From: Cystobasidiomycetes sp. EMM_F5
Taxonomy: Eukaryota
DNA: 43,939 bases
Assembly: GCA_051047955.1 (NCBI GenBank)
Contig: JBPGPT010000033.1
Location: forward strand, 124,001 to 167,939
Reading direction: 5' to 3'
The position numbers and the translations under genes are program-made. This document shows, piece after piece, positions 5,901 to 43,939 of this stretch (the stretch's first letter is position 1; every line of letters starts with the position of its first letter). The notes beneath the pieces were generated by a model. The model was not told the DNA's origin and ran no database searches. It saw only the letters and a program-made list of their open reading frames with translations.

Positions 5901-6408
5901 TTACCGCACGCCCCTTTTTAAGCAGGTGACAGAATAAAGATTACTTCATCAGCTGTCCGTGCGATATGCGGGTATGTTGTATCTCACATTCGGATAGATC
6001 CCTAACTGACGGCACAAACGAGTCATCCGGAGTCGATGTCGCCAAATGAGCTGGCAGTCTAACAATCTGGAGGGAAGTCTTCGATTTGCTGTGCCCCGCT
6101 TTGTCGTCGTCGCTTGCACCAGCATCGCTTTCCGGCGACCCGGTGTCTTCGTCATGACTTGGGTTACCCTTGTCGGCGGCAGATTTGGCGAGTGCTGCGA
6201 GCTGTATGGGCGTTATGGCCAGGATTGCACTCGTCCGCGACCGCTCTGCGTCCGTCAGCACACTCTGCAGCAGCTGAATGTTCTCTTTGCGTTGGATCTG
6301 GATGGACATTACCCCAGCGGGCAGCAGGACATGCGGTGGGCCAATTGGCAGCACCGGCAGCGTGTCAGGTATGCCATCAGCAGCAGGCGAGCTTCTAGGT
6401 CGCAACAT
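2941..6408 (-). CDS. Peroxisomal Lon protease (LONP2-like)
   Basis: LON N-domain (LPVLP...LLPAGV), Walker [25 protein letters not shown] catalytic Ser motif, MTGEVSLRG. The spliced C-terminus is ...SQFVSRL*, a canonical PTS1. Confidence 0.93.
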
Positions 6409-6625
6409 GGTTGGGGTGAGTCGGAAAGAGAGATGGCCTGAATAGCTGACGCCTCGTTTGGCCACAAGGTAGACATCGGTAATACCGTCAGCGCTATGCA
6501 TTCATGACGTTCAGATGCGTGCTTTGCAGAGCACTCAAGCGTATAGACTACTGCGCTGACGTTGATTTCAACTGCTGCAATTGCTCCTAAAACGACATCA
6601 TACCCTCTTACTTGCGACCACCATC

Positions 6626-7462
6626 TCAAACGAACGGATTCTCTATCGCGCCAAAGCCCTCCACTGGATTGAGAATGACCAGCGCGGTCCCTCGTATCAC
6701 TGCAAGTCCGAGCGTCCTTGTCTGCGCAGGTTGCACAGGCTGCAGAGTGACCGGATCTAGAATATGATTGGAACAGCCGTCTCTCAGCATTTGCGCAGCG
6801 AACGATGCGTAGGGCAGGGTACACACACCCCGTACGACTTCCTCGACATCGTCCAAGACCAGATTGAGCAGAGGATCCCAACCTTTTAAAACGCCTTCGA
6901 CTGTGTTGACGATGACAACAAGCAGCAATCAGCCTGATTGAACAGCTCTTCGCACTGTACCATACTCCCTCTGACGCACCTTCTCTCCCACCAGAGAATT
7001 TGACCCGCACGCGCTTGTCTGCATATCTGTTGTGGTGTTTCAGAGTATATCAAAAGTCGTTGCAGTCGGTCAGTCAGAACACTGGCAGCATGGGTGTCTG
7101 TCAGCGCACTTTGCGAGGTCGAGAATAGCTTCTCGTTTTCGTTGTTCTTGTTGACTGTCGCCATGTCCAGTCCCTCCACCGCCTGAACTGCCGCCTCGAC
7201 CACCTCGCTGCCCTGTAGAGCCGCCTCGACCACTACCACGTCCACCTCTTGAGCCTCCCTAGATTTGAACAATGACGGAAGATATGAGATGTGGTCAGCT
7301 TGACTGCCCTTCCTGTCCATGGTATATTTCTCAAGAGTGCATAATGTTTCGAAGCATAATCGGTGACGATCTTCCATGCCTTCATAGCTGAGCGCAGAGT
7401 CGACCATTGGCTCAGTGTCCGTGAGCGCTGAGACTCACTCGGCCGCCTCCTCTTTCGGACAT
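6626..7462 (-). CDS. LSM7: U6 snRNA-associated Sm-like protein Lsm7
   Basis: MSERGGGR|GGSRGGRG...KREAILDLAK|YADKRVRVKFSGGRE|VEGVLKGWDPLLNLVLDDVEE...RTLGLAVIRGTALVILNPVEG..IENPF; four introns. Confidence 0.92.
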
Positions 7463-17158: not shown

Positions 17159-19418
17159 TCAGTAAGGGTGCCTTAGACGTCTAGCGGCTGTACTCGCATC
17201 GCTCTCTACTGCCAGGGCTTTGGCAAGGTATAGATCTGCGAGAGCCAAGTCTCCTACAACGCGCATCTTGCGATGGGCAACGTGATGTTCGCCCATTTCG
17301 AAGGCTGCGAGGAGGTTGTACACTTGGACGAGGTCTTCTGAGTGAGCACCCTGGGACATTCGCACTGCCGTCAGCCAGAGTTTTCCGTACCCGCAACTGA
17401 AGCTTACTGCAGAGGTGTCGACTATCCGCATCCAATATACTGCCGCCTCGGAGAACAGTTGCATCGACAAACACTGGTCGCCAAGGCGTAACAGTACAGT
17501 GACGTCGTCCTGCTCAGCCAAAAGCTGTGCTCGCTTTAGACACTTGAGCGTTTCGTGAGGTCTAGCGCAAAAGCTCAATGATACATACAAACTCCGGAGA
17601 GGAACGACGTCGCACCTCGACAATTTGCTATAACTGTTTGCCAGAGCTTGCCACATTCGCATGTCAAATGGTCTGCAGAAGGAAATATGATATCGAAGCC
17701 GTGAGTTGCGCGAGAAGGCTCATCAAGGCAGCCCGACTGACCTGAGGCAAGCTGCTCTTTGAAAGTAGCGCAGAGAGTAGGTATGCATGCCCAGTATTTC
17801 GTATGCTTGTCCAAGCCCATACCAAGCTCGATAGTCCTTCCGGTCAATGTCTGACAACAAGCACGTCAGCGACGTTCGTGTACGCTCGACAATTGTAAGC
17901 TGCTACTCACCGCATGCATTACGATAAGCTTCGATGGCGGCATGAGTATTGGCCATCTCGACATACTCATGACCCATCAACGTCCATGCGGATAGGGCTC
18001 GACCGTCTAGTTTTATAGCGCGACGGAAATACGTAATCGCTTGGCCATGCTCTCCCCGTAGTGAATAAAAGTTACCTGGTTGAAGCGCAATTTCAGGCTC
18101 GCATGTGGTGCCGCATGACACGTCGAGTGCTTACCTATAAGACAGCAGGTTTCTGGCCGGTTTCTATCCACACGCATATAGTGATGTGCAAGTTGAGACA
18201 ATTTTGCTCTATTCCCCATCACGTAGAGTATATTGCTGTAAGTCTCCAGGTTATCCGTCCGACTTGGGTCCAGCTTGTAGATTTGATCAAATTGCGTCTC
18301 TGCTGCGTCAAAATCTGAATTATACGCATGGTTTAGCCGAAAGGCACTCATCCTGCGTAGCGCTGTCAGACATGCCTCTCAAGTGGTAGTCCAGGAGAGC
18401 GAGCTGTGCCATAAGATGGAGGCTTTCGGGGAAAACGCGTTGAAGGCTGTGTATACGGTCGCGAAGCGCCTCTGTCGCCCGGTGTACTTCGAGACTTGCG
18501 ACGATCTCAAAAATCTCCGTCATGAAGCTTGGTGGCAACTTGCTCATCACGGTATAAAGCTGGGTACAGGATCACGATAGACGGGTCAAATGTGCGCGCC
18601 ACAAGCTTACGCGTTTGCTGAAATACGCACCTCATCCTCTCCGTCGAGCAATTCAACGATTTTGAGCCAGGCAGACCAGTTGTAGGGAAAGAGGGATACC
18701 GACTGCACTAGCGATGTTATTGCTTCCGCTCTTTGGGACGTGACAGACAGTGCAAGCCCTCGCCTGATGAAGACATACACGAATCAGTCCTGCTAATATC
18801 GGGACTCTTGTCATGCGAGCTCTGACAGCAGTGCAGATTAAGCTCACAGATAGAGTAAGAATGCATCATTTGTGTCGCGGAGTTCGTAGACCATGCTCAG
18901 GATGGTGTCGGACTGGACATTCTTGCCTGACGAGGCTATAGTTATGCAGAGTATGCGACGTCAGCTGGGCGCGTCTGAGGAGTTTCTAGAGAATGCTTAC
19001 TGCATGCGTTGACTGTCTGCTACAGCCTACAAGGTGAGAGACTTTGCGCAAGTCCCGCGCTTTTCCCACAGGCTCACCAGGAAAGTGCAGTACAACCGCA
19101 GCCATGTGCACGTCGGATGCACCAGACCTTGCAATGAACGTGTGCACGCTTCGTACTCGCGCATATCGTAATACCTTTTGGCGAGATTGTAGGCGCGCTG
19201 ATCTGACGAGAGACTCCACTTCGTGCAAGTAATCTCCGGTATACGTTGTTCGTCTTCGTTGCCGCTCGAAGCGCAATGCAGTTCCGCCAACCTATCTCGA
19301 CGAATGCAGTGTCAGACCGCAAGTACGTATACGTTGGCGCACGCCCTTACCAGCGGGCAGCGAAGTGCAGACCACGGTCACATAGCTCCTGTACGGCTTC
19401 GCTCAGTGTGCGATCCAT
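17159..19418 (-). CDS. CDC23: Anaphase-promoting complex subunit 8 (TPR protein)
   Basis: [91 protein letters not shown]. Start codon uncertain. Confidence 0.9.
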
Positions 19419-19638
19419 GCTTTGCTAATGAAGCAAGATGCAGCTGAGAGCAAACCTGTGCATAGGTCGCAGCCGAATCTCTGAATGCAACCCGCGTGCC
19501 CACTTGCAGGCAGTCAAGCTGCATTCCGACTCGCTGTACGTGTATACTGAAGCTAGATGGTACAAATATGTCTTTCTCATAGGCTGAATGCAATTAGTAT
19601 CCAGTACTTCTGAGCCGTTTCCAGGGTCTTCCGTCATC

Positions 19639-20360
19639 TTAATACTTCCGATGCAGACCATTTGTCCTCAAGGCTGCTTCGATTACTCTTTGCGCCTTGG
19701 TATGCAGCTGATTCTCTTCCCGCTTCTCCACACCGCCACCATCAATAGCGGACGTAGACTTCCAGCACGCAATGGCTTTCTCTACGGCTTCAGCCAACTC
19801 TTCTGCATCGCTTTGCGGTACTTCAGACTGTTCTCCAATTCCATGCGAGAGCGTTACTCGATTAGCATTCTTGAAGACTCCAGCCTGTACAACATGAATT
19901 GGCTCACCGCATCAGATGGCTCGCCAATTGTCCCGCCACGCTTCCAAATACTATTTCTGCAGCATCAACTGCATCTTCAGCGCTGACCCAGTGCTAACAA
20001 AAGGCTTTGTCTGGAAGGCTGGCGGTCACTTACACGATAGCTCTGCTCGGACTTGCCCAGCGCTGCCTTCGCCTCATCTCCGAAAGATAGCACCTTTATG
20101 TGTGGTACAGTATCAACCATCAATGAGAGTATCAGTGCTGTGTAACAAGCTTACGCTACTTCGGATCCGCAGCGCTGGTAAAGGTCTCAGTTCTGCGTAC
20201 TGAAGAACCTGACAACTTCTCCCTTCTACCGTGGTAGCTCCCGAGCGTTTCGTTGCTTCAACTGCCGGTAGACGTCGAAAAGCAGATGCTGCTTGTGAAC
20301 ATCTCTTCGCTTAATCTAAACTGATCGATTGTTTGGTCCAACGGTCCAACGCGAAGCTGG
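19639..20360 (-). CDS. Orphan gene A copy 1 (hypothetical, possibly degraded); 5' structure unresolved
   Basis: Open frame AGVFKNANRV...DAEELAEAVEKAIACWKS...ENQLHTKAQRVIEAALRTNGLHRKY* (stop at 19639), homologous at protein level to 22.5-22.8 kb. An upstream block VGPLDQTIDQFRLSEE matches VEPFDLTINQIRLTED at ~23.2 kb. Confidence 0.45.
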
Positions 20361-20661
20361 CCGGAAACTCGGAAATCTCATCACTGCATGTACTAGGGGG
20401 TTGGCTTCGCTCCCGGCTGCGTACCACTCAAAAAAGCGTCGACCATTTCCAGAAGCAAAACGGAAGTGAGGGTGCGGGGGGAAGGCACAGCGTCGCTCCG
20501 CTTGAACTTCACTTCGCGTAGATCAATTACGCCATAAACACTGCGACACTTGTCGACGCCTACAGACTGTAATTCAATTCGAAATTGACAACCTGGCCGC
20601 GCCTACATCGAATCCCTCCGAATCGTGGTCTCGAGAAATTCGGTAGCACCGGGCTGCCGGG

Positions 20662-21563
20662 ATGAGTGAGTCTGCGTACGTCGTACGGGCTTTCTACGCA
20701 CGTCCAGTCAATGCAGTCCCCAAGAATGGTCGCTACGGCACCCCCCTTGATGCCACGTACTTCGCATGCCTGGATGTCCACGATCTCGAGGTATTGTTGA
20801 AACAGCAAGAGGGGCACGACGATGAGGAAACGGCAGTCAAGTGGTTCTTAAGCTGTCCCGTTCATGCATGGCAGTATCATGACCTCCTCGGCCCAGCCAT
20901 ACAAGACATACACGACATGTTGCCCGGCCGCGGTGGTCCATCTCAACAGGACTTTCGCGATTACTACATACCTCTGGCCACATTGACTCTGCCGAAAAAA
21001 GACTGGTCCGCGTTCCGTGACGAGGGCATCCCAATGATCAGCATCCTGCAGAATTATGTGAACCATTTCCTGCTCTCTGGCACATGCACACAACGTCTGG
21101 AAGCACTCAATCAGCTTCGCTTGCGCCTCCGGACCGAGTTCGGAATAAAAAATGGTGTGAACGCCACTTTTCTGACCTTCCGGACCGCAGGCTAAACGAG
21201 ATAGGCCAGGACTAAACCTTCGAGAAGCAGAATGGCGGCCCTACCCTGTCGATAATGCTGCATGTGGGCGGGTTTGTACGTACTCCAGTAGAAACGGTCC
21301 CCTGCCTTGCTAATGACTATCTTGTCCCAGCCGTTCATGCACTGAGACAAGCCATGACAGACTCACTTGACGCATCCGGAGAGCAACAGGTCGAGGATGG
21401 CGGCGGGTCGGTCGGATCATCTCGTTCTAGAAAATGGCTTTTGCGCTCGAGTTGGCTGCTTAAGACTGCTAAAAAAGTGGCACGGCCATCGCGCAATGTA
21501 TTGACTGTGCGTCCAAACATCTCCCTTACTGAGTTGAGATATTCTAACCAGATTCCTAAATAG
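20662..21563 (+). CDS. Orphan gene B copy 1 (hypothetical protein, 2-3 introns)
   Basis: MSESAYVVRAFYARP...DATYFACLDVHDLE...CPVHAWQYHDLLGP...DFRDYYIPLATLTLPK...|GLNLREAEWRPYPVDNAAC|...HALRQAM. Frame and intron positions are conserved with the paralog at 23369. No recognisable domain. Confidence 0.75.
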
Positions 21564-22388
21564 CCTGCCCGATCGAGCGCCTCGATGAAAAACTCTATTA
21601 CCAGCGGCAAGACTTGATGGGCCAAGACTTCTCCACTTGTATGTACGCGCAGAGTAATTCTGCATCTTGGGCCTCCGCTCTGAATGCATTGCGCGACAGT
21701 TCTATTATGCCATTTCGAGAGCTAGGCAACCATTCTGTTTTTCGTAGCCCATTCCTCTGTATTACATAGCGACACGCAACCTGTCAAACCGACGCATCTA
21801 CAAAATTGTCCTCTGGCCTCATTTTAAAATACTCCTGCCTCATTTTCAAGCGGTGTTCGTGATCCTCCTCGGCAAAAGCTCGTAGTCATGAACTATCATG
21901 CAGCTGGACTCGACTTCAGATCATTTGACAGCGAGTACCGAAGACTTCTTGCCCGCAGAGGCTGCTGACGGCAAATGAGCAGGTCAAACCCGCCTGCAGA
22001 TGACTGCATTAAGCATGGAGCTTGCAAAGCGAAAGGATTGCACGTACACCTAGCAGGTTCGCGGTCTCGGCCGTGTCCCGAGAATCCTTCTAACGTTGAC
22101 AGTCTACTAGGGTCCGCCTGTTCTGTCGGCACCCTCTCTCGCGGTACTTACTGCGACATTCCAGACTTACTGCCAAAGATGTCCGACCTTAGTGTCCGAT
22201 CTTACAGAGCATGCCATGCTCTGCGAACAACTCAGCGAAATACTGTCAATTTACATGCTGCGGCTTCTTGGATGCATCTTTCTGACAGGAGAAGTGTCAG
22301 GACTACACGGCTTGCCCTGACTACGGAGCTACCGACAGCTGGTCACGTTTCAGTCTGCAGGTTCCGGTTTGTGTTTGTGGCGCGGCTT

Positions 22389-23245
22389 TCACTCAAGTCT
22401 CACGTACTTAGTCTCCAATTTCTCATGATATTCGAGGTCATCCTGTCCGGTTACAATTGTTGCATATTTCGGACCTAGGGCGGCGTGCGCGGCGGCTCTG
22501 CTCAAACTATAGCCGGCTGGTGTGGTTTTTCCAGAATGCCAATGATCATGGAGATGTGCTTTCCTCAAAGCTGCCTCGATCACCTTTTGAGCTTTGGTCT
22601 CTAGCTGATTCTCTGTTACTTTCGTCTTTCGAACCCATCGAATCACGCAGAGACTTCCAGTACGTCACAGCATCTTCAATGGCTGCGACCAGCTCTTCTG
22701 TATCAGCATCGCCTTGTCCCGTTACAGACTATTCTCACACCCGTCAGCGTAGAATCCGACCAAATTCCTATGACTCCCGCCCCTACAGTAGTACGGTGAC
22801 TTTCCGTATTCGATGGCTCTTTGCGCTTCTTCGGGCCGAGCTGTCGAACTTTATGACTATCAATAATGATGCCTTAGCGCAGGGCACTACCACCGCCTTT
22901 CTACTATAATTCACAAGATACTCCTTGGCATTGACGAGCTGTGCTCTTCTCCTATTTCCGCGAGATCATCGCCTCTACCTTCAATACCGGTCAGCTCGTA
23001 CTTCAAAAGGTAAATATGATGAGAAGTGCTTACCTTGTTGCATGTCGTTGCCCACTACAATTCCGGTTGGATGAGCTGACGATGCTAGGGATTTGTGCAG
23101 CACTACATACCGTGGGATCCTGTGCGCTCTCAAGTGCTGCGGTCGTGGTCTAAAGAACCACCATTGTCTTGAACATCTTCCGTCAGCCTGATCTGATTGA
23201 TTGTTAGGTCAAACGGTTCGACGTTGCCCGACGAAAATTGCATCC
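22389..23245 (-). pseudogene. Orphan gene A copy 2, disrupted
   Basis: DTEELVAAIEDAVTYWKS, then a frameshift (37 nt versus 39 nt in copy 1) before ENQLETKAQKVIEAALR. In-frame TAG where copy 1 has CAG. Confidence 0.55.
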
Positions 23246-23368
23246 TGTAACTTACGTACAGTAACCGGCATTTGTCCCGGAACGACGAAGAGCCCGGGCC
23301 ACATCGATTTTCGAAACAGCGACCCCTCCCCATTCGGGACTTGCGAGTCCGGCTCGCAGCAGGCCAGG

Positions 23369-24334
23369 ATGAGTGAATCTGCATACGTCGTGCGGGCTTT
23401 CTATGCACGTCCGATCATGTCGACCGCAAAGACGGATTGCTGCGGTGCATCCCGTGATGCAACGTACTTCGCAAGTCTTGATATCTACGACCTCGAGGAG
23501 TTATTGAAACAGCAAGATGGTCGAGACGCTGAATAGACAGCTGTTCAGTGGTTTCTACACTGCCCTGTTCACGCGTGGCAGTATCACGATCTCCTAGGCC
23601 CGAAAATTCAAGACTTACACGAGGCGCTTCCCGGTCGCCCTTCGGCTATCGATTTTCGCGATTACTATATCCCGCTGGCCACATTGACGCTGCCAAAAGT
23701 AGAATGGTCTGCATACTGTGACAAGGGCGTCCCGATGATCGACACTCTAGGGGAGTACATGCACACTTTTCTGCGGGCGACTACGTGTACAGAACGTGTA
23801 TCTGCTCTCCACCAGCTTCGTATGCGCTTGCGGTCCGGTTTTGGTGCTGCAGACGGTGTTTACGTCTTTTACGTGGTTTTCGGACTGCGGCTGAAAGAGT
23901 GATCACAGAACTAAACCTTCGAGAAGCAGAATGGCGACCATATCCTGTGGACAATGCTGCTTGTGCATGGGTTTGTACGTGTGTCATTTTGGCTACAAAC
24001 GATAGGGTCTGCTCATTGCCTCTGGCATAGGTGTGAACACGTTAAGAGAGGCTATGTCTGAACCGCTGAAGGCTTCAGCTGTACGATTCACCGATCATCA
24101 AGGCGGGTCGCCAGATGAAGATCATTACGAGAAAAAGGTCTCTTCGATCTCTGGTTGGCTGCGCAAAACTGCAATCAGGATATCGTCGTCCAGACGATCG
24201 TCTCGCTCAATTTTGACAGTACGTTTGTGAGAAATGTGGCTCTGTTGCGAGAGGCCAAGTGGATCGTGACGCAGCCTGCCCGGTCTCACGCATCGCTGCA
24301 AAACTCTAGCAGCAGGCTTAAGGCTTGGTGCTGA
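23369..24334 (+). pseudogene. Orphan gene B copy 2 with one in-frame TAG (23534-23536)
   Basis: Identical N-terminus MSESAYVVRAFYARP; DAE*TAVQWFLHCPVHAWQYHDLLGP versus DEETAVKWFLSCPVHAWQYHDLLGP. The rest of the frame and the intron positions are retained. 3' end uncertain. Confidence 0.65.
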
Positions 24335-24795
24335 AGACTGCTCAGTATCCTGCGCCGTCTTATTTGTCATACAAGGACGACGACGCGGCATCCAGAACAC
24401 AGCGATACCATGCTAAGGCCTCTAGGCGCAGCATTCTAGTCTGGATATGTGCAATCAGAATCAGCTGACTTCAAATTGAGGCGCAAAGAGGAGAAAGGTG
24501 AGGAATACGCATACTCCTGATGCCGAACGTGATGTGACTTGGAATACTGATTGCTGTAATATTTGTAGGAGGCAATACTGAAGCATCACAGTCTAGATCC
24601 TGAAAGAGATAGGTGAGTATTCGCGCCAATGCAGTTCGGCCATGAACGTCAAGAATCGTTTGTAGGTAGGAGTCACTTAAGTGTGGGCAAAATGTATTCG
24701 TCAGGTCAACACAAATAGTGGGGGTTAGTTGCTCATATTACGTCTATCCTGAGCGCCGCATCACTTGGGCATCTGGCGAGCGCAAGCCTGCAGGC

Positions 24796-24960
24796 GTGAG
24801 CGAGTCAGCACAGCACTTCGTTATCGACCAGTATCATGACTCCCTTGGCAGCGGTGTGCCCGGCCTTCTTTGTCGATTCGAAGCCATCGCCTTGCCTTCA
24901 ATACTTTGAGATTGCCAACAATATCAGCGAAAAAGGCGTCCACGGGATGGTGCTGTATTC
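24796..24960 (+). pseudogene. Probable third, internally deleted remnant of orphan gene B
   Basis: GTG-AGC-GAG-TCA-GCA (VSESA), cagtatcatgac QYHDSLG (versus QYHDLLG), a cccggcc block and KGV (versus KGVPM) occur in colinear order. Confidence 0.4.
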
Positions 24961-25494
24961 GCTGAGTCTGCAGACAGGCTATCACTCATCAGCAGCAATT
25001 CACTTTCTGCAGGTCCGAGTTTGCACTACGCTGGCGGTTCCTCGCCTTCCCTTGGTGATGAGCCTCACTTAACAAAGACTCTGACAATCATCACATTTTA
25101 CCCATCGACTCTAGTCTGTCCACGAGCCAAATAGCCAGAACCGTCGATGATGGCCATGGTTGTCAGGTGGCTGGAGATCTCGGAATAGTATGCTGCCCAG
25201 CTGGCAGGTGAAAAGGTGATTAAGTTGACATGCGATCTTAACTACCGCTCGCAGAGACTATGATCGGTAGCGCATACCCTCAAGCGCAGGGTAACCCCTT
25301 ACAAATCTCGCCAGTTGCTGCGACGTCCAGATCGTATTTTACAGCAGCGACTTGGCGTTTCGACCGTAAAGTCCGCCATGCTACAATATCTGATATCCGT
25401 ACTCAAATTATTATCCTCAAGTCGCGCCTTGTGTCAACATCCGTCATCGCGGAGTGGATCTTATGAGGTATATTGAGGCAAATCGCATTGGGAG

Positions 25495-26451
25495 TCATGA
25501 CCTGCGTATGTACGTCCACGATGTGACTTCGATGCGTCTGACTATGCTCCGCTTCAAAATTGTGGAGCGCGACTGAGGTTACGGACTACCATGCGATGTT
25601 GTAGCGCGTTACTCTTGGCTTGTCCACCAGGACATTCCGGGCGAGCTTTTCGTAAAGAGGGGGGTTTGGTCGATCTGATTCCTCCAATGATCGCAATTCC
25701 TCCGTGTCGTACTCGGTGTTGACATAGTAGCCAATTCGTACAAATTCTTGATTCGAGTATGAAGCGCTCAGCAGGATGACTGTGACACCGATAAGATCTG
25801 TTGGAGGTATATGTTCAGGGGCGGGGGCGGCTGCCTAATGAATTTGGTGCAGATGTAGCAGACGGCGAGTTCATCAGTATCGATACTATGCACAATGCGA
25901 TAAGATATGACGACATGGATGACCTCCGACATTGACGCTCTCGGCATCAAGCACACTGGTCATGCCTTCCGGGTCATGCAATCTTTGCAGTGACGAGAGG
26001 GATGGAATAAGGATTGCCTTACTTCGAATTCAAAGCTGTTGACGCCTATAGGTACCGGCCCGACCATGCAAGTGTCGAGTTCTTGATCGAAGCTTTCGTT
26101 TTCGGCGGACCCCACATATGTAAGCTTCCATTCAATGTCTGTTGATGGGCGAGCACGCATTTCCGCAAGTCAGTCTTGTGCAAATCTTCGGTCTTCCTGA
26201 GCTTGCTTGCAGAACACCGGCGCAGGAGTGTGCTTGGAGTGAAGGGTCGCGTGTAGACACGCGTCGCAGCCTCATCCGCCATGGTCTGCCAATGAGCAGA
26301 TGCGTGGATTCGGGTATGGCTGCACGGCGACCAGGAACCCACCTTCGGGTAAGTCTGCGATACACTCGAATGTAATCTTGAATGTATATGGGTCCCCAAA
26401 ACGAGATGGATTGTTGAGGACCGCGACTTCGGTGATGTTGATGACGGACAT
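25495..26451 (-). CDS. ASF1: Histone chaperone Asf1
   Basis: [44 protein letters not shown]...DQELD...[14 protein letters not shown]|...[22 protein letters not shown]...[12 protein letters not shown]. Confidence 0.95.
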
Positions 26452-33618: not shown

Positions 33619-36210
33619 TCAATTGGATGCAGCCTGCTGAACGATCAAGTGGCGCCCTAGATAGTGGCTATCTCGAAGGCCTGACAATGCTGCCAACGCT
33701 TGGTCTGCTGATGCAAATTGCGCAAACGCGAAGCCGCGTAGAGCGTTGCCAGATTTGCGCGGTAGACGGATAGACAGCACTTGACCATACGATCTGCACG
33801 AAGTAGAGGAGGTCAGTACATGGCGCGGTTGGCAATGTGCTAAATTTAGGATTATTTACGCTAACAGCTTGCTGAGGTCAGTCTTGTTGGCTTCGAAGGG
33901 CAAGTTCTTAATGACGATTTTCGTGGAGTTTGCGCCAGACGCTATACTGTCGTCATCGTTCGTGGGACGTATCTTGCGTTCAGACTGCTTGCAGACCAAC
34001 GCATATCCGTCGAGAACGTGTCCATCTTTGAGTCTCATTGCGTTATCTGCTGACGGCCAATCCGTGAACGCAACCCAGCCATATCCAGAATGGCGGCCTT
34101 CCGGTACCTGTTTGCTATTTGCTAGGCTGAGCGAAATGTAGCCGGGTAGATCGCAAAAGACGGCTTCCACTTCTTGGGTAGTGCTAGCGAAGTTTATATT
34201 CTTGACAAACAAGGCTATTTTACCAGAATGGTCAGCCTCGATGGACTTTGAGCAGACTGATTGATGAACGACGGAATTTAAGTCATCGCTCGTTTCTTCC
34301 AGCTCCCAGATGTCGTCTGATAGCGACCTCGCGTAAACAATGGATTTCCCTAGCTTGAGATAGGATAGGGATTTCAGTGCCTTTGTGGCCTGCAGAGAGT
34401 TCTGAAGTTGTATCACGGATATAGATCCTGCCGGTGGCAACAAGAGGCGCACGATATCCAAGTCGATACCGGACACAATGGATCGTACAGTAGTTTCCGA
34501 CGTTCCTACCGGTAAATTTGTCAATAAGAGCGATCGTGACGGCGTCAGCGCTGATGCATCTTTGCGAGATGTGTTTGGCTTTGCATTCACGTCCTTGTCG
34601 AATTGCGGAAGTCGTACGCCATGCTGTGATAGCCGGACTCAGGCTCTACCGCACTGCAATAGACAGAGAGCCATGCTTACAGTCTGAAGGTAGTCTCGCG
34701 TTTCTTCGAGAAGTACGGTCTCAGCCAATGTCTGCTCTAGGGCTGAATGACTGGAATAAGCATCGAATATTCGGTGCTTGCGAGTCTGAAACCGCTGCGC
34801 CACGCTTTCCATGGCAGCATCGCTCTGTGACAGGAGTGAGCACTGTGGTAAAGAGATTTGATATTTTGGCACTGACTCCAATCAACAAAGCACCGCCTGA
34901 TTTGCCGTTTCCATTGTTGTGGGTGGACGGAGGATGGTGAGCCGAAGGGTCATAGGTCCAGGGATGGCTGCCTTCAGGAGAAGTGTCCCGATGAACCGCA
35001 GGAAGAACTTGCAGTACTCTTCCCTGGAAAGGCTGCTGATCTAATTCAATACGTGCTTTGTCTGCGTACTGCGGCGACGCGAACTGGACAAATGCCACCC
35101 CCTTCGAACGGCCATCCTTATTGGAGACAACATGTACCTGTTTACGTGAAGGGCGAACGCCGCGTTATTGTTTTACATGGTATACAGGGAGAGATAGCTG
35201 ACTCACGCTAACTATATCGCCGTATGTATCAAAATGCGCGCGTAATTCATCTGGCGTCGCTGTGTATGATAGATTACGCACAAAGAGACGAGATACAGCA
35301 GCGGCGCCGGTAGTCTTGCTACTGGGTTCCTGCTACAATCGCACGAGTTAGACTTGGGAGAATGCTGGTGGAAAACACTTGCCTCGATGGCGGTCCCGGA
35401 CGCAGTCTGAGGCAGGTTGTGCTGAGTCATGTGACGCCGACGTCTGGAGATAAGGTATTCCTCGTCCGTAGCATTGTGCGAGACCGATGATAAGGGCGTT
35501 TCTGCCACTTGGGAGGCGACATCCGAGTGATTACCGGGCGGAGGCGGAGGCGGAGTTGCGATGAAAGTTGTTTCCCACGTACGACCAGGCGGAAGAAAGC
35601 CGTTGTGCTCTACGTCACCTTGCGACATAGACATGTGCTTCCTTTTTCCAGAATATTTGGGTGGGGCAGCATTGATCTGTAATGAAAGCGGCAAATACAG
35701 GTATGCACACACACATATACACGTATACCGACGGCAGTAGTATCGTCAGAAGATCTCGTTAATCATCTTGGACATGTTTGCCTCACCACCTTTGCAAAGT
35801 CAACCTGAATTCTTGATCCTTTGAACCAGGTGCCATCAAACCAATTTCTCGCGCAGACGGCGTCATTCTCGGTCTTATAGCCCACAAACCCCATGCAGCG
35901 GGACTGTCCGTGACTGGTATAAAGTACTTTTGCATCTGTGACCGAGAGCCCGGTTGATGCAAAGTACTCGTTGAGCGCGGACGAGGTCACGTCTGACTTT
36001 AGCGAAAAGACGACCAATCTTGAAGATGGCTTTCTGAGGTTGTCACGGTGATGCACGGGCGGGATTGGTACCCAGACAGTGAAGAGTTTGCCACATTCCG
36101 GTTTTTTTTTCTCTACCGCATCAGCACTTGGACTGGCGCCTGTTTTGCGGTGAAGCAGCTCACGAAACCGTTCCAGCACGCGTGGGCGACGGTGCGCGTA
36201 CAGCCGACAT
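33619..36210 (-). CDS. MRD1: Multiple RRM-domain ribosome biogenesis protein Mrd1 (diverged)
   Basis: RRM1 SRLVV...SRCMGFVGYKT...WFDGTW..SRIQVDFAK; RRM2 SRLFVRNLSY...SKGVAFVQF...FQGRVLQVLPA; linker LAETVLLEETRDY; further RRMs LFVKNINF and KIVIKNLPFEA...RGFAFAQF...HYLGRHL. Start codon uncertain. Confidence 0.85.
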
Positions 36211-36343
36211 AGCTTTCAAAACGAACCGTCTGGTCGGTTGCGGGCAAAGCTGCTCAATCTGGCGTTGCAAATCAGGCGTCATTGATCCACCTCCCGCTTG
36301 CTCGAGCATCACAAGGATCTAGACGGTTTCCAACTCCAATGCT

Positions 36344-37030
36344 ATGTCCGTACTGCTATCTGCGCCCCGATCCCGTCTGGCCTTGTGCGCCCGTCAACTG
36401 CGTCAGTTTGCAAGCTCGACTGCGGTCCAGTCCCACGTTGGGTCGGCGCCCATACGTCTACCAGAAGGTGTAGACTGCGTGGTTGATCCGACGTCGACAT
36501 CCGTCCGCATTTCTGGGCCCCGCGGTCATCAGGTTGTCCAGCTCGCGTCTGGAATCAACGCCCGCCTGAGTGCCTCCGGCAGTCCGCAAACAGCAGAGGG
36601 CTTACTCGTAGTAACCTGCGCGGATCCCCTAGACAAGGCGCAACGCTCTCAATGGGGTCTCCGACGAGCTTTGGTCGCCAACGCTGTGACTGGCGTCTCG
36701 ACCGGCTTCCAGCTACCAGTGAAGCTTGTAGGCGTAGGGTATAGGGCTACCGTTGAGAGCACGCCCGCGAACCCGCCGAAATCTCAACATTCCAACAAGA
36801 CTCTAGTCTTGCGACTTGGCTATCCGCAGCCTATACGACTGTCCATTCCCGACGCCATCGAGTGCTCTGTGTCCTCGCCAACAGACATCCTCCTTTCAGG
36901 AGCAGACAGGAATGCCCTGGGTAGTCTCGCAGCCGTAATCCGCAACCTGAGAGTTCCCGAACCGTATAACGGAAAAGGCGTCTTTGTAGGCAATGAACAA
37001 GTAAAACGAAAGGAAGTACGGAAGAAGTGA
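36344..37030 (+). CDS. MRPL6: Mitochondrial ribosomal protein uL6m, intronless
   Basis: Presequence-like N-terminus, SHVGSAPI, QWGLRRALVANAVTGVS.GF, LVGVGYRA, PEPYNGKGVF. Confidence 0.93.
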   Translation: MSVLLSAPRSRLALCARQLRQFASSTAVQSHVGSAPIRLPEGVDCVVDPTSTSVRISGPRGHQVVQLASGINARLSASGSPQTAEGLLVVTCADPLDKAQRSQWGLRRALVANAVTGVSTGFQLPVKLVGVGYRATVESTPANPPKSQHSNKTLVLRLGYPQPIRLSIPDAIECSVSSPTDILLSGADRNALGSLAAVIRNLRVPEPYNGKGVFVGNEQVKRKEVRKK

Positions 37031-37071
37031 ATCTCCTGTCATCTGCCGTCTTCTATGGAAGCCTAATGCCG

Positions 37072-38931
37072 TCAAATGTATGGTGGACCGAGCTGCTTTC
37101 GGAAGGCCGACAAGGTGAACTCTACGACCAGCAAGAGCAAGCCTCCACCAGGAGCTAGCCGCAGAACCTTGGGCAGGAAACCTTTGTACAGCGCACCAAA
37201 GCCCTCTTCACGAGCCACGACGAACAGAGATGGTATGGCCCACTGAAAAATTAGGCACCACGTCATTGACTGCACAGCAGAAGATGCCACGTGCAGCTTA
37301 CGTTGTATTTGGGCAGTTGACCTTTGACCTAAGGCGTTACAGCGGAAGGTGATTGACGGTCATTTCAGTAGTCGTGCTGAGCTGGTCAGATTGCTCACTT
37401 TTGGCGAATTCTGAACCCGTGACTTGATGACGTCGACTGTATGGTGAGGTCAGCTCTGCTCGATGGCATGTTCGTCACAGGCTACGTGCAGGGTGTGTTG
37501 AGAAGTGTGCCGACGAAGCCTCCGATAGTGCCTCTGTCAAAGTACCGTCACCCTCAGTGCACGGGACGCTTATGCATGCACTGACGATATCAGATTGTTC
37601 ACCAGCTCCGCAGATTTAGTCTGTTGCCGGATCGCTTCCAGTCAGAACAGTCTCGTTTCTGGACACCACCAAGCTCACCTGCGCTTTCGGCAGCAATGAT
37701 CTCACTTGAAATATGCATCCGAAATAACCGCCATTCCATACAACATGACTGCCGTCGAGGGAACGGACGCACGTGTGAGTTTATGCCGCGTCATGTAAAG
37801 CTTCGATGCATCTACGTACCGCCAAAAGGTTGGTTCTAGGCCATTGTAAAAACCAAGTACACCCTCGTTCTTCAGGATTTGCGATACGCAGTCCATTGGT
37901 CCCTTGTAGCGTCCAGCGCTGTTGCGATCTTGGAGGCGGATCTTTACCAATTCAAATGGTACGACAACGACGCTCTCGGTAGCGCCAGCAGAGCAGCCTG
38001 TGAGGATAGACAGTGCCTGCGTAGGCTTCTGTGCATCAAACGCCTGTCGGTAGGTCTGACCCCACCAGTCATTCGCGCTGGCAGAGGAGGCAGCTTCAGT
38101 CTCTGTGTGCAAAAGGTACCGCTCGCACGGCGGCCACCTCAGAACAGATATCGCAACTCACGCAAACTTGACCGCCCGCTTGGGCGCTTCCAACATCAAA
38201 GGAGGTATCAGTCCCCTGTACAAACGGGAAAATCTGGTATATCATGGTGAATGTCAGAATTGTCAAGCGGGCTAGCTGGAACCACGTGTGCTTGCCCCTC
38301 CTCTGCAATGATCTTTCTAAAGCAATCAACCATGCCTGTATATTGCGTTCCCGTTGCCGAAGGTAAGCCAGACTGTAATTGAATACGTGTTTTGACCTGA
38401 GATGGGCAGAGGGGTCAGCTGTCTCACGACTTTATTGAAAGTAGGTGTAGCCGACCACATCTGTGAAATCGTCACAACACCGTCAATAACATTCCCGCGA
38501 CTGCGACACAGAGATTAGGCAAGACTCTCACCGAGAGGGTATAGACATAGAAGCTCTGTCACTCCACTGGAGCACATAAACCGCGCATATTCCAGGTATT
38601 GTGCAATGAGTTAGCACGCGTTCTATTACACAGTCTCCGTTTCACCCGGCTAGACCAGATGCCCATCGACTGCTGCCAAACTCACGCAATCGCTCCGGCG
38701 GTGAATTGGTCTGCGGTAGCGGTGGCAGCGTCAGCGTCAGCGTCAGCCAACCCGTTTCGAGATAGCGTGTGTCCCAAACTTGCATATGAAAGGTAGTGCT
38801 GGGCGGCATTGGATTCGAAATATTGAGCAAAAGGCGGAAGAGGCAGAAGTATGGTCAGCTCATGCAGCCATGAAGTGTGGACAGGTTGAATGTGTCCCAC
38901 GCTTCAATGTTCGCTGTCCAGCGTCTGCCAT
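37072..38931 (-). CDS. Mitochondrial 2-oxodicarboxylate carrier (ODC family)
   Basis: MADAGQRTLK|PLPFI|YQFTAGAIA|GVTELLCLYPL|D, LLMLEAPKRAVKF, VVVPFELVKIRLQ, NTP|FDVIKSRVQ, LYKGFLPKVLRLAPGGG. Confidence 0.9.
38725..38748 (-). repeat. (GCTGAC)3 hexamer repeat giving a triplicated branch-point motif in an ODC intron
   Basis: Minus strand reads GCTGACGCTGACGCTGACGCTG just upstream of the CAG acceptor at 38711. Confidence 0.6.
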
Positions 38932-39108
38932 GATGGTGCTTGTATGAGCAGCGGCAAAGTACAGACATCGCATGGCAGGCCTTCAACTCCACATGATGTT
39001 AGCACAGAGTGATCATGCTGTACTCGCATCATGCCTGGCATGCAAGCAAACAGACAACATGAATGGCGTCCTTGACGCGCGCAGCAATTCGCTACATTTC
39101 GTTCAGTT

Positions 39109-40730
39109 TCAAACATACATACTGCTGCTGCGAGTCAATTTCTGCAAGGACAAGGAAATATTGTCCGCGTTCGTGGGTTTGTATGCTGCGCGTTCAGTCA
39201 GTGCATCAAGCGTCCTGCCTCACTGGCAACGCCAGCCGCAGGCTACCCAGCTTGCCAAGAAGCACCCCGACAGCCGCTGGTAGCAGGTCCACCGCATCAT
39301 ACTGGCCAACGGACTCTATGTCAACTGATAGGAGGAAATTATCAGGTATGCTTCGAAGGTATGGGAATGCTGGCTGCCCTCACAAATAAAGTGATTCCTT
39401 TTTCTGCCCAAAATAACTGACTCCTCGAATTCCGCGTATCGCAACACCTCGCGGCTGACCGTGTCACGTCGACAGCTGCTTACGGATGCACGGTAGGAGC
39501 CATCGGCGTCCTTCTGCAGCTCGATCACACCTGGGGCGAAGCACTCCGCAAATTGATGACACAGAGCGGACGGGATTGGCTTGATGATATCAATGGTTGG
39601 CATCAATCGATATGATGCAGTAGCTATGTTGTTTTGACGTGAGAATGAGAAATGCGCGAGATGATTTAGGAGGCTGCTCACCGACGGGTGACCATTTGGC
39701 ATGCTCTTTGCCGATGCCCTTCTGGCAATGCATCTCCATGACGATCTCCTTCATCCGCGATCGTTAGCCGCTACCGCCAATCTGCTCAATGAAATGACTA
39801 CATACTTGACCCGGGCGAAGTTTTGCAATTAATATATCATCTGCGACAGGTCGAGGCGCCCTTCCGGCAAAGTAATCGCTCTGAATGCCTTTAGCCTGCC
39901 AGACGAACGCCGACGAGTACACTGCGTCAGCGGAACAGATTGAGTCAGTCATACACCTCGCTTATGAAGGAGGGATGGTCGACACACCATGCTCGTTCGT
40001 GTAGCGCTGATCAGTGAGACTTGAACTAGCAGATGGCAGGTTGCCTTGGTCATCGCAGCTTACGACCAGGCTGAACACAACTGTATTTAGATCGGTTGGT
40101 TCTTCAGCGGCTGTAATGGAGGCCGTAAGCTAGCAATATTCACACGAAGCTCAGTCAGCTTCGGCTCACCGAGCTTGTATTCGATTTTAGCGGGATCTAT
40201 TCGCAATGGTACCAGCCCGAGCCTTTGCGATAGTACCTCGTCCTGTATGAGGGATGTGTTATTCCAGATGTAGACGTCTTCAACGGCGACGGTGGGAACC
40301 TGCAAAACAGGGTCAAATATAACCCACGAAGCGGGAGCAACAGCACACACCTCGGCGATGAGGACTCTCCGGATAGCGTTTGCTATTGAAGCGTCTACGC
40401 CAACAAGATCTAGCTCGACCCGCTGAGCCGAAACATGCCCAACCTTGACCCGTATACTCTACAGACCAGTTGCGTCAGGCATGAAGCCGGCTTGCAGGAG
40501 TAGAGCGTGCATACCTACCCTGCGAGCGCTCTCCTCGTTCCACGACAAGTCCTCGCCCGGATACACGCCAGGGAAGTCGCGAGCCGAGACCTGTGCCATG
40601 CAGTACCGTTATCGTCAGCAGATTTGGCTGCCTCCGATGCCCACGGGTGCAATCCTACATTTGCGACGGTCTCCTTTCCAAGTCTTACGTGCGTTCGCGG
40701 ATCATAAGCAGTATCTCCCAGACTGTCCAT
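39109..40730 (-). CDS. RPC40: RNA polymerase I/III shared subunit AC40 (RPAC1)
   Basis: DFPGVYPGED, DLVGVDASIANAIRRVLIAE|VPTVAVE, NNTSLIQDEVLSQRLGLVPL, ILIAKLRPGQ, ASYRLMP, RRDTVSREVLR, HFI|FDIESVG. The start could extend to 40766. Confidence 0.93.
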
Positions 40731-40850
40731 GACATCGGCATATTGTCTCATTGCGAAAGCCTTCATGGCACAAATTTCTCAATCTGACCGAGAGCGATCG
40801 GAGCCAACAGCTACAAGTAACGCTACGCAAATCATGTCGTATGCGATGAT

Positions 40851-41451
40851 TCACCGTTTCGCCAGCGGCTTTTTCTTTTTGCCCTTCTTGACATTGCTGC
40901 CTCCGCCGTCCTGCTGTATGCCGCTGCTAAGCAACGGTTCTGCCCCACTACTAGTATTTACCAGAGCTTGGGCGGGCGAACGGGAAAAGGCCGTTACCGA
41001 TGGTTTACGGGCTTGCATAGTGGACATGATTTGCGATGTAAGAATTTCAAAGCGATTGAGCACGACGCTCGACCGAGTCTTGTACATGAGGGACTATGTG
41101 CGCACACTAGCTAATCAGTGATATATTTTCAGCGTCAATCAAAGGATCACAACTCGCACCTTCTTATCGTTAGTCACCTTCAAAACCAATGAGCCTTTCG
41201 AGTAATTCCAGCGAACAGTAGCGCGTGTCTGCGAACCGCATTTGCCAATCAGTTCGATACTCTAGGCAGCAAGGCTACTATGCGAGACAGCGAAGGTCTT
41301 GCTACTGCCAGACCTCCAGACAGGTGCATCGTCGCTAGATTACAGGGGGACGTATGCCTGTGAGCGGCTGCTGCTCTACCTTTTCTGAGTCCGCATCGAC
41401 CATTCCGCGGGCACCCTCCGCGAACGTCGACCACGAGCGCATGTAAACCAT
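40851..41451 (-). CDS. Signal recognition particle Alu-domain subunit SRP9/Srp21
   Basis: MVYMRSWSTFAEGA...|TRATVRW...LVLKVTND..|..YKTRSSVVLNRFE, followed by a Lys-rich tail. Confidence 0.8.
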
Positions 41452-41566
41452 ATTGCAGCAGTCGTAAGAGCGTACGAGTGCGTGCAATGTGCGCCTGTGA
41501 TGCTCCGACCCTTGCCTGTCGGTCAGAAACAAGTCTACGTAATGTCGGCTTTCTCTTCGCGCAATC

Positions 41567-43669
41567 ATGTCTCGACAGACTGTTGCAGCCATTCAAGTGC
41601 TGCAAAGCGTCTTTCGAGTACTGAATCATGCTGCAGAAATGCACATCAAGAGAGGGCTCCCATCTGTGCCTCTTGCTGGCAGTATGCGTGACGTCGGTCC
41701 TAGAGATGTTCCTGTTCCGAAGGAAAGTGGACTATTCGAAGACGCGCACAGCGTCCCTGCTGGTGCCCTTGGTGACGAAAGAAGGGCAAATTGCCAATCT
41801 CCGGAAACTTTCCTGCAATCACAATCCTCCCAAGCCATAACCTCGCCCTCTTCGTTTCCAGCGAAAGATGTATCGGACGCGAGCTCATCGGTACCGTTTC
41901 ATGACAATGCGGTATCAGCGGTTACTTCGATGCGCGTATGTCCTCCATAACTGCCATGCTCTTTCCTAGCCTGACCAGTCTGTGCAGGTCTCAACAGTAC
42001 CAAGCTCTCGCGTAGCACGTTTCCTGCAGTATGGCCGTACGTGATTCGATCTAGCTTTCTTGACAGGCAAATAGTGACTTTATCTGGATCGGAACAAGAA
42101 TTAGCTGCCGGCGTCAGCTTGGGCAGCGTGGGCGGACTGCTAAACCGTCTATCCGGGTCCACCACATCAAAGCCTTCCGTGGTACTCACAGACGCAAATA
42201 TACGTCGAATAGTGAAATCTCTTTCGCGTATGCGGGGAGCTGCTCTCAAGCTCGGCCAATTTCTAAGCATTCAAGGTAGTAAAACTCGTGCATATCCGCT
42301 GGTACACACCTGAATATGCGTGATGGGTAGAATCTAAACTGTTGCCGCCGGAATTGGAGGCCATCCTGTCGCGTGTACAGAACGCTGCCGATTTTATGCC
42401 GTCCTGGCAAACCGAGGTGCGCGAGCCAGCCAGATTTAGGCATACGTATTGCGATCAATGCTGATGATGACGATGACTAGGCCGTGCTGGAGTCTGAGCT
42501 GGGCTATGATTGGCGAAGCAAGTTCGAGACTTTCGACCTGACTCCAATAGCTTCTGCCTCTATCGGCCAAGTACATTCAGCGACCCTGAGCACTGGCCAA
42601 CGAGTGGCAGTCAAGATACAGTTTCCAGGTATAGCACAAGCCATCAATTCGGATCTCTCCAATATTGCAATGCTCCTGTCCTTTTCTTCTCTACTTCCAA
42701 AAGGACTTTATCTCGAAAATAGCTTGGAAGCTATGAGAAGCGAGTTGATTGACGAATGCGACTACGTTCAAGAAGCTGCTTCAGCCAAGATCTTTCGAAA
42801 CCTCTTGCAAGATGATTCAGATTTCTCTGTTCCGACTATCGTTGCTGACCTCAGTACGGCACGCATCCTCACCGCCGAATACATGCATGGCGTCCCTATA
42901 AATAAGGTGACAGGCTTGTCGGCACCGCAACGCAATCACGTAAGTTCGGAGCGTCTTTGTTTTGTCCTGCTCTGAGAAGTTCATGTCTTTGTCGATCAGA
43001 TTGGATCCGCCATACTTAGCTTGTGTTTGCGAGAGCTTTTCGCATTTCAACTCATGCAGACAGATCCCAACTGGAGCAACTTTCTGTGGAACAGTAGCAA
43101 CGAAAAAGTTGGTCGAACGTTCCATTACTGTTGAAACCCTGCGTCGACGATCTCTGACGAAATTGCATAGATCGAACTCTTAGACTTCGGGGCTACGCGA
43201 TCCTATGAGGGTGACTTTGCCGATAGTTACCTGTCCTTACTCGAGGCTGCAGTCGAGAAAGACACGGCTGTATGTATACGCTTGTCCCGGAGAATGGGGT
43301 ATTTGAGAGATACCGATGGAGAGGTCAGTGGGAAACATTTGTATATGAGGCTAGACCATACACTGATTTGCAATATACTAGACAATGATCAATGCACATG
43401 TGGACAGTATGATTGCACTGGCAGAGCCGTTTCGACACGACAGCTTCGATTTTGGAAAGCAAGACATCATCTCTGCTGTGCAGGCTAAAATACCTGTCAT
43501 GCTACATAATCGTACGGGCCCGCCCCCAAAGGCGACCTACAGCTTGAACAGGAAATTGAGCGGCTGTTTCCTGCTCTGTGCAAGATTGGGCAGCGTCGTG
43601 AATTGTCAAACGATTTTGCGAAATGCGACTATTGGCCGCAGGCACGCAACGCACGCCAAACCGGGCTAG
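41567..43669 (+). CDS. COQ8: ABC1/UbiB atypical kinase Coq8
   Basis: LSRMRGAALKLGQFLSIQ, PIASASIGQVH, VAVKIQFPG, ELIDECDY..EA, MQTDPNWSNF, LLDFGATR, YSLNRKLSGCFLLC. Confidence 0.93.
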
Positions 43670-43939
43670 GCGTCTTCGAATCTCAAGCACAGGAGCACAG
43701 GTATACATAGACAAACAAAGACGTCGGTTTTATTACCCTCCTATGGGGCAACGTCGAAATGATACAACTGCAGCGACCTTCAATGGCTGTCGGAAAATTG
43801 CTGGTAGTTAGTACACACGGACGATCACCTGTCTTCAGCTAGCTGATAAGCCTCTTTCTTGTTATCACACGCGTCGGATATGTATATGATCCGACCGACA
43901 CCCCTCATAATTGCGCCTTGGATCTACTGCGTTGTGAGA

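Follow-up and report, generated by a model that had tools for sequence, protein, structure and literature searches.

The window analysed here, 43,939 nt long, is the terminal 44 kb of contig C181, which belongs to the 18.3-Mb, 253-contig assembly of Cystobasidiomycetes sp. EMM_F5, and the element in question is a cassette of two orphan genes, named A and B. A, on the minus strand, and B, on the plus strand, lie head to head, and this pair is present twice in direct orientation, about 2.7-2.9 kb apart, with CDC23 on one side and ASF1 on the other (Table 1). A blastn self-comparison of the region aligned 20605-21281 with 23316-23980 (71%, E 4e-79), 19665-19835 with 22562-22736 (69%) and 20255-20351 with 23126-23223 (70%), and the two copies of A reached a local score of 161 over 720 nt, against a shuffle maximum of 39. 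These results, together with the Pfam matches of the flanking genes, bore out the initial annotation of this DNA, which had described a divergent pair occurring twice between CDC23 and ASF1, and the direct repeat blocks spanning both genes upheld its claim that A and B had been copied as one unit. It had also spoken of repeated birth and death, where only one duplication event is evident. Searches of the organism's own genome returned at least two copies of B and at least two of A, with no other DNA match. The two genes are unrelated to each other (their score was equalled by 156 of 500 shuffles). In base composition the A/B segment does not differ from the DNA on either side, where repeats reach 10 nt at most. 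A third copy of A, considered at 24.4-25.3 kb, was rejected: of 548 control windows, 5 reached its score of 36.5 against A2, while 406 reached its score of 26 against A1.

Both copies of B contain three GT-AG introns of 53-57 nt, identical in position and phase. Differences between B1 and B2 numbered 72, 53 and 127 at the first, second and third codon positions, and over 261 aligned codons the synonymous divergence (dS) was 1.10 and the nonsynonymous divergence (dN) 0.285, giving a dN/dS of 0.26 (95% bootstrap interval 0.17-0.36). From these values it follows that the duplication is old, that both B copies were constrained for most of the time since, and that the loss of B2 is recent. The only premature stop of B2 is a TAG at codon 56; B1 has a Glu codon at this position, as an ordinary nonsense change would predict. 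A 55-aa protein terminating at this stop is present in an independent Logan assembly, which argues that the stop is not assembler-specific, though the same reads may underlie both assemblies. B1 is intact, and both copies were conserved for long. The retained frame and intron positions and the third-position excess agree with what had been reported for B, the four conserved blocks quoted for it were all found, and the dN/dS value speaks of purifying selection, in line with the earlier view that B is or was a real protein.

B1 and B2 agree best at the N-terminus, where the first 15 residues are identical. In B1, residues 1-187 form a conserved acidic N-terminal domain (isoelectric point, pI, 5.8) and residues 213-262 a basic Ser/Arg/Lys-rich tail (pI 12), and no hydrophobic segment is present (maximum 19-residue hydropathy 0.8). 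A folded domain, a basic tail and the lack of a hydrophobic segment suggest that B1 may be a soluble, probably nuclear accessory protein associated with nucleic acid or chromatin. The public model of this gene, KAL7005126.1, deposited under a Cystobasidiomycetes species with the label hypothetical protein, has 160 aa and terminates within intron 1; since exon 2 is highly conserved, this model is argued to be incomplete.

The two copies of A share a five-exon plan and a common ATG (20302 in A1, 23176 in A2). Across three alignable blocks of the minus-strand frame, amounting to 40 codons, the proportion of synonymous differences (pS) was 0.50 and that of nonsynonymous differences (pN) 0.16 (Fisher p=2e-4), with a dN/dS of 0.21 that is biased low, since the blocks were picked for alignability. 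A was formerly a conserved protein gene under purifying selection, a property on which the initial annotation had made its reading of the pair depend. Plus-strand open reading frames (ORFs) running over A (19588-19986 and 22412-22909) were rejected as antisense shadows, the synonymous excess without stops belonging to the minus-strand frame. Like B, A encodes a short protein; it has no hydrophobic segment, and A2 contains a basic PKKRK stretch.

In A1, 129 codons are open up to the stop, yet the ATG shared with A2 lies out of frame. Its intron-1 donor is weak (GTAGAA), the donors of introns 2-4 match the consensus at 4/4, and 78 splice paths could formally rescue the gene, each of them requiring a donor that scores <=1/4. 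A1 is probably a pseudogene or an N-terminally truncated gene. A2 carries a TAG at codon 9, an exon 2 one base longer than that of A1, GA instead of GT at the intron-4 donor and a frameshift in the last exon. An apparent TGA common to A1 and A2 is out of frame from the shared ATG, so that neither editing nor read-through needs to be invoked. Upstream of this ATG, a block of 48 nt (20303-20350) is conserved in unit 2 (23175-23222; 35/48 identical). The block may be a regulatory element, in the form of a promoter or 5' untranslated region (UTR) element shared by both genes, or it may be an N-terminal coding extension of A. Since its pattern is codon-like (pS 0.54, pN 0.20) and an upstream ATG of A2, at 23243, lies in the frame of this block, the true start of A is uncertain. 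The word GATTGTT, which resembles an HMG-box site and has a frequency of 0.13 per kb in the DNA examined, also occurs once in each of the two intergenic regions.

The lesions were unevenly spread over the four genes, with four in A2, one in A1, one in B2 and none in B1. Five of the six thus fell in A, which accounts for a third of the coding sequence (binomial p=0.017), and in unit 2 alone the proportion was four of five (p=0.044), both p-values being computed from six events in all and on gene models drawn here. A probably died before B; three of the four genes look broken, with B1 the probable survivor. The decay of the cassette, as originally proposed, is confirmed by the TAG of B2, the four lesions of A2 and the one of A1. 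Its proposed co-dependence found no support, given that B1 persists with both copies of A apparently broken. This persistence argues that B can do without A, and makes it improbable that B was a toxin held in check by A as its antidote. Nor is joint duplication evidence of partnership, since the tandem copying of a 2.9-kb segment takes along any two neighbours, and local duplicates occur elsewhere on C181 and on C173 as well.

The opposite assignment, in which A was a small toxin and B its antidote, would make the cassette a decayed toxin-antidote or drive element sheltered in a low-recombination block associated with the pheromone/receptor (P/R) mating locus. The divergent paralogous pairs would have had distinct specificities, and the loss of the toxins would have left the antidotes free to decay. 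The concentration of lesions in A, overall and within unit 2, agrees with the order of loss required of such a pair. The close divergent spacing of the genes (359 and 192 nt), the long conservation of both pairs after duplication, the orphan status of the genes and their P/R-associated address would fit as well. However, only two adjacent copies exist, without dispersal, no toxin-like Pfam family was obtained at E up to 10, and A lacks a hydrophobic segment. Moreover, loss of A first is also expected if A was simply less needed, and the small number of events behind the p-value, together with its reliance on our gene models, weakens the argument from order. We consider this explanation unlikely, and slightly more so its fully specified form, an undescribed module of basidiomycete yeasts made of two new families, lodged at the P/R block with two specificities and dying toxin-first, of which B1 would be the last antidote.

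Table 1. Coordinates of the cassette, its flanking genes and the P/R-associated markers in the window.
Feature	Position	Strand	Details
A1, orphan gene, 5 exons, ~130 codons	19639..20302	-	exons 20302-20230, 20174-20155, 20093-20034, 19956-19908, 19827-19639
Divergent intergenic region between the ATGs of A1 and B1, 359 nt	20303..20661		contains the 48-nt conserved block
B1, intact orphan gene, 4 exons, 262 aa	20662..21617	+	exons 20662-21154, 21210-21275, 21331-21506, 21564-21617
Spacer, unit 1 to unit 2	21618..22388		unlike A, B and the region right of B2
A2, pseudogene, same 5-exon plan	22389..23176	-	exons 23176-23111, 23054-23034, 22974-22915, 22856-22805, 22728 onward
A2-B2 divergent intergenic region, 192 nt ATG to ATG	23177..23368		
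B2, recent pseudogene, 4 exons, 266 codons	23369..24334	+	exons 23369-23855, 23909-23974, 24031-24218, 24275-24334
CDC23/APC8 exon, left flanking gene	19030..19311	-	Pfam ANAPC8 E 1.4e-9; start ~19420 by eye
ASF1 exon, right flanking gene	25589..25834	-	Pfam ASF1_hist_chap E 3.3e-27; start ~26451 by eye
LSM-family gene, P/R-associated marker left of the cassette	6626..6928	-	Pfam LSM
Multi-RRM gene, ribosomal L6, mitochondrial carrier, RNA polymerase dimerisation-domain subunit, ABC1 kinase	33856..43669		Pfam; P/R markers right of the cassette

Two segments of the region have no assignable gene, 21618-22388 (~0.8 kb) and 24335-25580 (~1.2 kb); they are unlike each other and unlike A and B, and are possibly older decayed sequence or long UTRs. 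The ORF 21969-22478(+), in the spacer between the units, had no Pfam match, and a scan of 19300-25600 against Rfam, with a threshold of E 0.1, gave none either. Local tandem duplication was observed at two further places, at C181:66900-68600 and at C173:10925-11185/13752-14015 (38-51% amino-acid identity; 78% nucleotide identity).

Other genes of the window suggest a mating-type context. In Rhodotorula, eight core and seven extension genes are associated with the P/R locus, LSM belonging to the core, and these loci include a STE12-like gene and commonly contain transposable elements (TEs) (10.1101/2025.09.11.675505). In Sporidiobolus, LSm7 and RibL6 adjoin STE3 (PMC2916851). By Pfam family, and with orthology assigned without trees, the window carries 6 of the 15 families listed for Rhodotorula (LSM, ribosomal L6, the RNA polymerase subunit, the mitochondrial carrier, ABC1 and the multi-RRM gene). 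In this it resembles the red-yeast P/R mating-type (MAT) block, and so does another contig, C222, on which STE3, a PBD kinase of the STE20 type and ribosomal L18ae lie together. We take the LSM gene to be LSM7, the multi-RRM gene to be MRD1 and the RNA polymerase subunit to be RPAC1. The red-yeast block differs in that no duplicated orphan pair, CDC23 or ASF1 is mentioned in the available portions of the two sources (10.1101/2025.09.11.675505; PMC2916851), the main text of the former containing neither the name CDC23 nor the name ASF1.

On C222 (26.8 kb), the kinase occupies 2.6-4.0 kb, STE3 22.6-23.5 kb and L18ae about 25 kb, and both ends carry 91-bp inverted repeats (97%). A simple CAAX scan recognised no pheromone precursor on this contig, and such a gene may lie in collapsed repeats. 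Two ORFs flanking STE3, L012:1113-1778(+) and 5962-6432(+), encode 222 and 157 aa, have no Pfam match and are unlike A and B. The end of C181 (window 43834-43939) is a 106-bp repeat (98%) that recurs inverted at the start of C173 (125-230); the first 55 nt of C173 are also overlapped by C172 (509 bp). These 106-bp repeats may represent the outer arms of inverted repeats that enclose the P/R core, and the pattern of end repeats would fit the placement of C222 between C181 and C173 across collapsed repeats, while no sequence overlap joining C181 to C222 was found when the contig-end repeats were tried. Judged by the marker genes to its left and right, the cassette lies in what appears to be an ancestral P/R-associated block, with a presumed linkage to STE3. 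The earlier suggestion of a mating-type-linked element gains support from the six P/R families in the window and is held back by the location of STE3 on a separate contig.

A two-gene module for mating or non-self recognition, working like HD1/HD2 pairs and built from proteins other than homeodomain (HD) proteins, would suit such an address. Like the basidiomycete HD1/HD2 (bE/bW) genes, A and B stand head to head over a short intergenic region and were duplicated as a unit, an architecture that mirrors the duplicated divergent HD pairs of mushrooms, and the PKKRK of A2 and the basic tail of B are compatible with nuclear import. Unlike those genes, A and B have no homeodomain, their N-terminus is conserved and one partner has been lost, B1 surviving alone. 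A genuine divergent pair of Homeobox_KN (-) and Homeodomain (+) genes occurs at C2:114903-118010, on a contig other than that of STE3, and is likely the HD1/HD2 mating locus, so that A/B is not the HD locus; none of the nine Homeodomain matches genome-wide is on C181. HET, NACHT/NB-ARC, HeLo and gasdermin-like domains are features of heterokaryon incompatibility and NLR systems, and Pfam matched none of them in the A and B pieces scanned. The conserved N-termini of B1 and B2 also differ from HD proteins, whose N-termini are variable and determine specificity (10.1101/2025.09.11.675505). A recognition module is given little credence here.

External homologue searches were performed with exon pieces as queries (164 of the 262 aa of B and 62 of the ~130 aa of A), against protein and metagenome sets that hold few Cystobasidiomycetes, and 'orphan' is used for a gene with no detectable relative. 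In a set of 5.8 billion proteins, exon 1 of B matched 1 of 18 candidates of near length, the organism's own protein, and none of 2850 longer ones. Among 1.84 billion representatives it matched only itself, twice, besides two repeat proteins (E 2e-4) that were judged spurious, and none of 92 metagenome contigs matched. For the last exon of A, proteins of 49-158 aa yielded no candidate. Exon 1 and the 3' ORF of B and the last exon of A were also compared with Pfam, which even at E up to 10 returned nothing meaningful and no homeodomain, HET, NLR, toxin-like or transposase family. Language-model features of the ESM Atlas were uninformative (best score 0.80). An AlphaFold2 model of B from a two-sequence alignment had a predicted local distance difference test (pLDDT) of 47, too weak to judge a fold; with it, Foldseek found no match at E <=0.001, and VIA gave a best Z of 5.7 to a generic helical hairpin. 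Complex prediction for B1 exon 1 with A1 last exon scored 0.01, with no bearing either way. The orphan status proposed for the pair thus stood in every homologue and family search run, and B matched neither a housekeeping nor a transposon family.

Extreme divergence could still hide the membership of B in a known family, for example as a STE12-like factor or a degenerate GNAT acetyltransferase. A STE12-like gene is present at Rhodotorula P/R loci, and in this genome the STE domain of STE12 had no match by Pfam or by a 3-mismatch motif pattern, in a search without positive control; STE12 may be lost, highly diverged or absent from the assembly. The single PDB sequence match of B, a weak one, was to an aminoglycoside acetyltransferase (E 0.27). 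Nevertheless, a STE profile gave 0.0 bits for B1, a score reached by 21 of 500 shuffles, and -1.8 for B2; extreme divergence would still be conceivable, as this profile is narrow and mostly ascomycete-like (18 distinct fungal sequences from the 20 of 80 loci that held both domain ends). A GNAT profile built from 21 of 25 E. coli matches, with leave-one-out controls at 15-76 bits, reported neither B1 nor B2, the hhalign probability was 0.1% for either family, and no language-model feature scored above 0.80. Membership in a diverged known family is unlikely. Orphan genes among conserved ones, in a kind of locus where TEs are common in Rhodotorula, could also be the remnant or a domesticated piece of a mobile element, but the pair exists in two copies only, its longest flanking repeat is 10 nt, its composition is host-like without a dinucleotide shift of the repeat-induced point mutation (RIP) type, and it shows host-type short introns, strong purifying selection and no transposase family. 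A transposon origin is very improbable.

The explanation that we favour, with somewhat better than even confidence, is that A and B were a co-regulated lineage-specific pair without obligate co-dependence, now decaying in a P/R-associated block, and that B1 is an accessory protein, soluble and probably nuclear, with a plausible place in the mating programme. A and B would be two unrelated genes for intracellular proteins, divergently transcribed from one short shared promoter. A segment of about 2.9 kb with both genes was tandemly duplicated once, long ago (dS ~1.1), presumably by unequal crossing-over, and both copies of both genes were then kept by purifying selection (dN/dS 0.26 for B, 0.21 for the A blocks). 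Selection would later have relaxed, and the numbers of lesions suggest that A2 was lost first, then A1 and B2, leaving B1, which would work without A. The genomic address makes a mating or sexual programme the most likely context of B1, and low recombination near P/R would have aided the persistence of the duplicates and then their decay.

Several points weigh against this explanation. Formally, A1 could still be rescued through one of the 78 splice paths with weak donors, and the transcription of B1 and the death of A1 are predictions from sequence. The constraint on A is overstated to the extent that its blocks were chosen for alignability. STE3 and STE20 are on C222, without overlap to C181, which makes the P/R linkage presumptive, and the neighbours CDC23, ASF1, LAG1-like, AP sigma and HEAT-repeat are outside the Rhodotorula P/R list in its available form. 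Finally, a purely neutral story would not explain why both pairs were kept to dS ~1 or why A was hit first (p=0.017).

Among described systems, the cassette resembles tandem duplicates of taxon-restricted (orphan) genes under pseudogenisation in its single local duplication, purifying selection and later loss of copies, and is unlike the typical case in that two divergent genes were copied together, both pairs were kept to dS ~1 and the loss was biased towards one partner. With rfk-1/rsk of Neurospora Sk-2 and wtf of S. pombe it shares lineage-restricted genes, tight linkage and pseudogenised copies. The Neurospora elements sit in recombination-suppressed regions. No similarity of A and B to these drive systems was found in sequence or domains, and the pair shows no multi-copy spread. 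An early stop of rfk-1 is reportedly bypassed by RNA editing, whereas the TAG of B2 aligns with a Glu codon of B1.

A working undescribed system is probably not what this locus holds, as B1 is the only one of the four genes that does not look dead and nothing supports co-dependence. If the toxin-antidote explanation were true, a basidiomycete mating locus would harbour a selfish element of two genes in which toxin and antidote are both new proteins; a literature search for such an element returned a general review only. As it most probably stands, the locus clearly illustrates how orphan genes are duplicated and decay. It adds two uncharacterised protein families, and the public 160-aa annotation of one gene is corrected to a model of 262 aa. 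Our literature search turned up no description of MAT loci in Cystobasidiomycetes, and the analysis outlines the P/R gene block and the HD locus in a member of this class.

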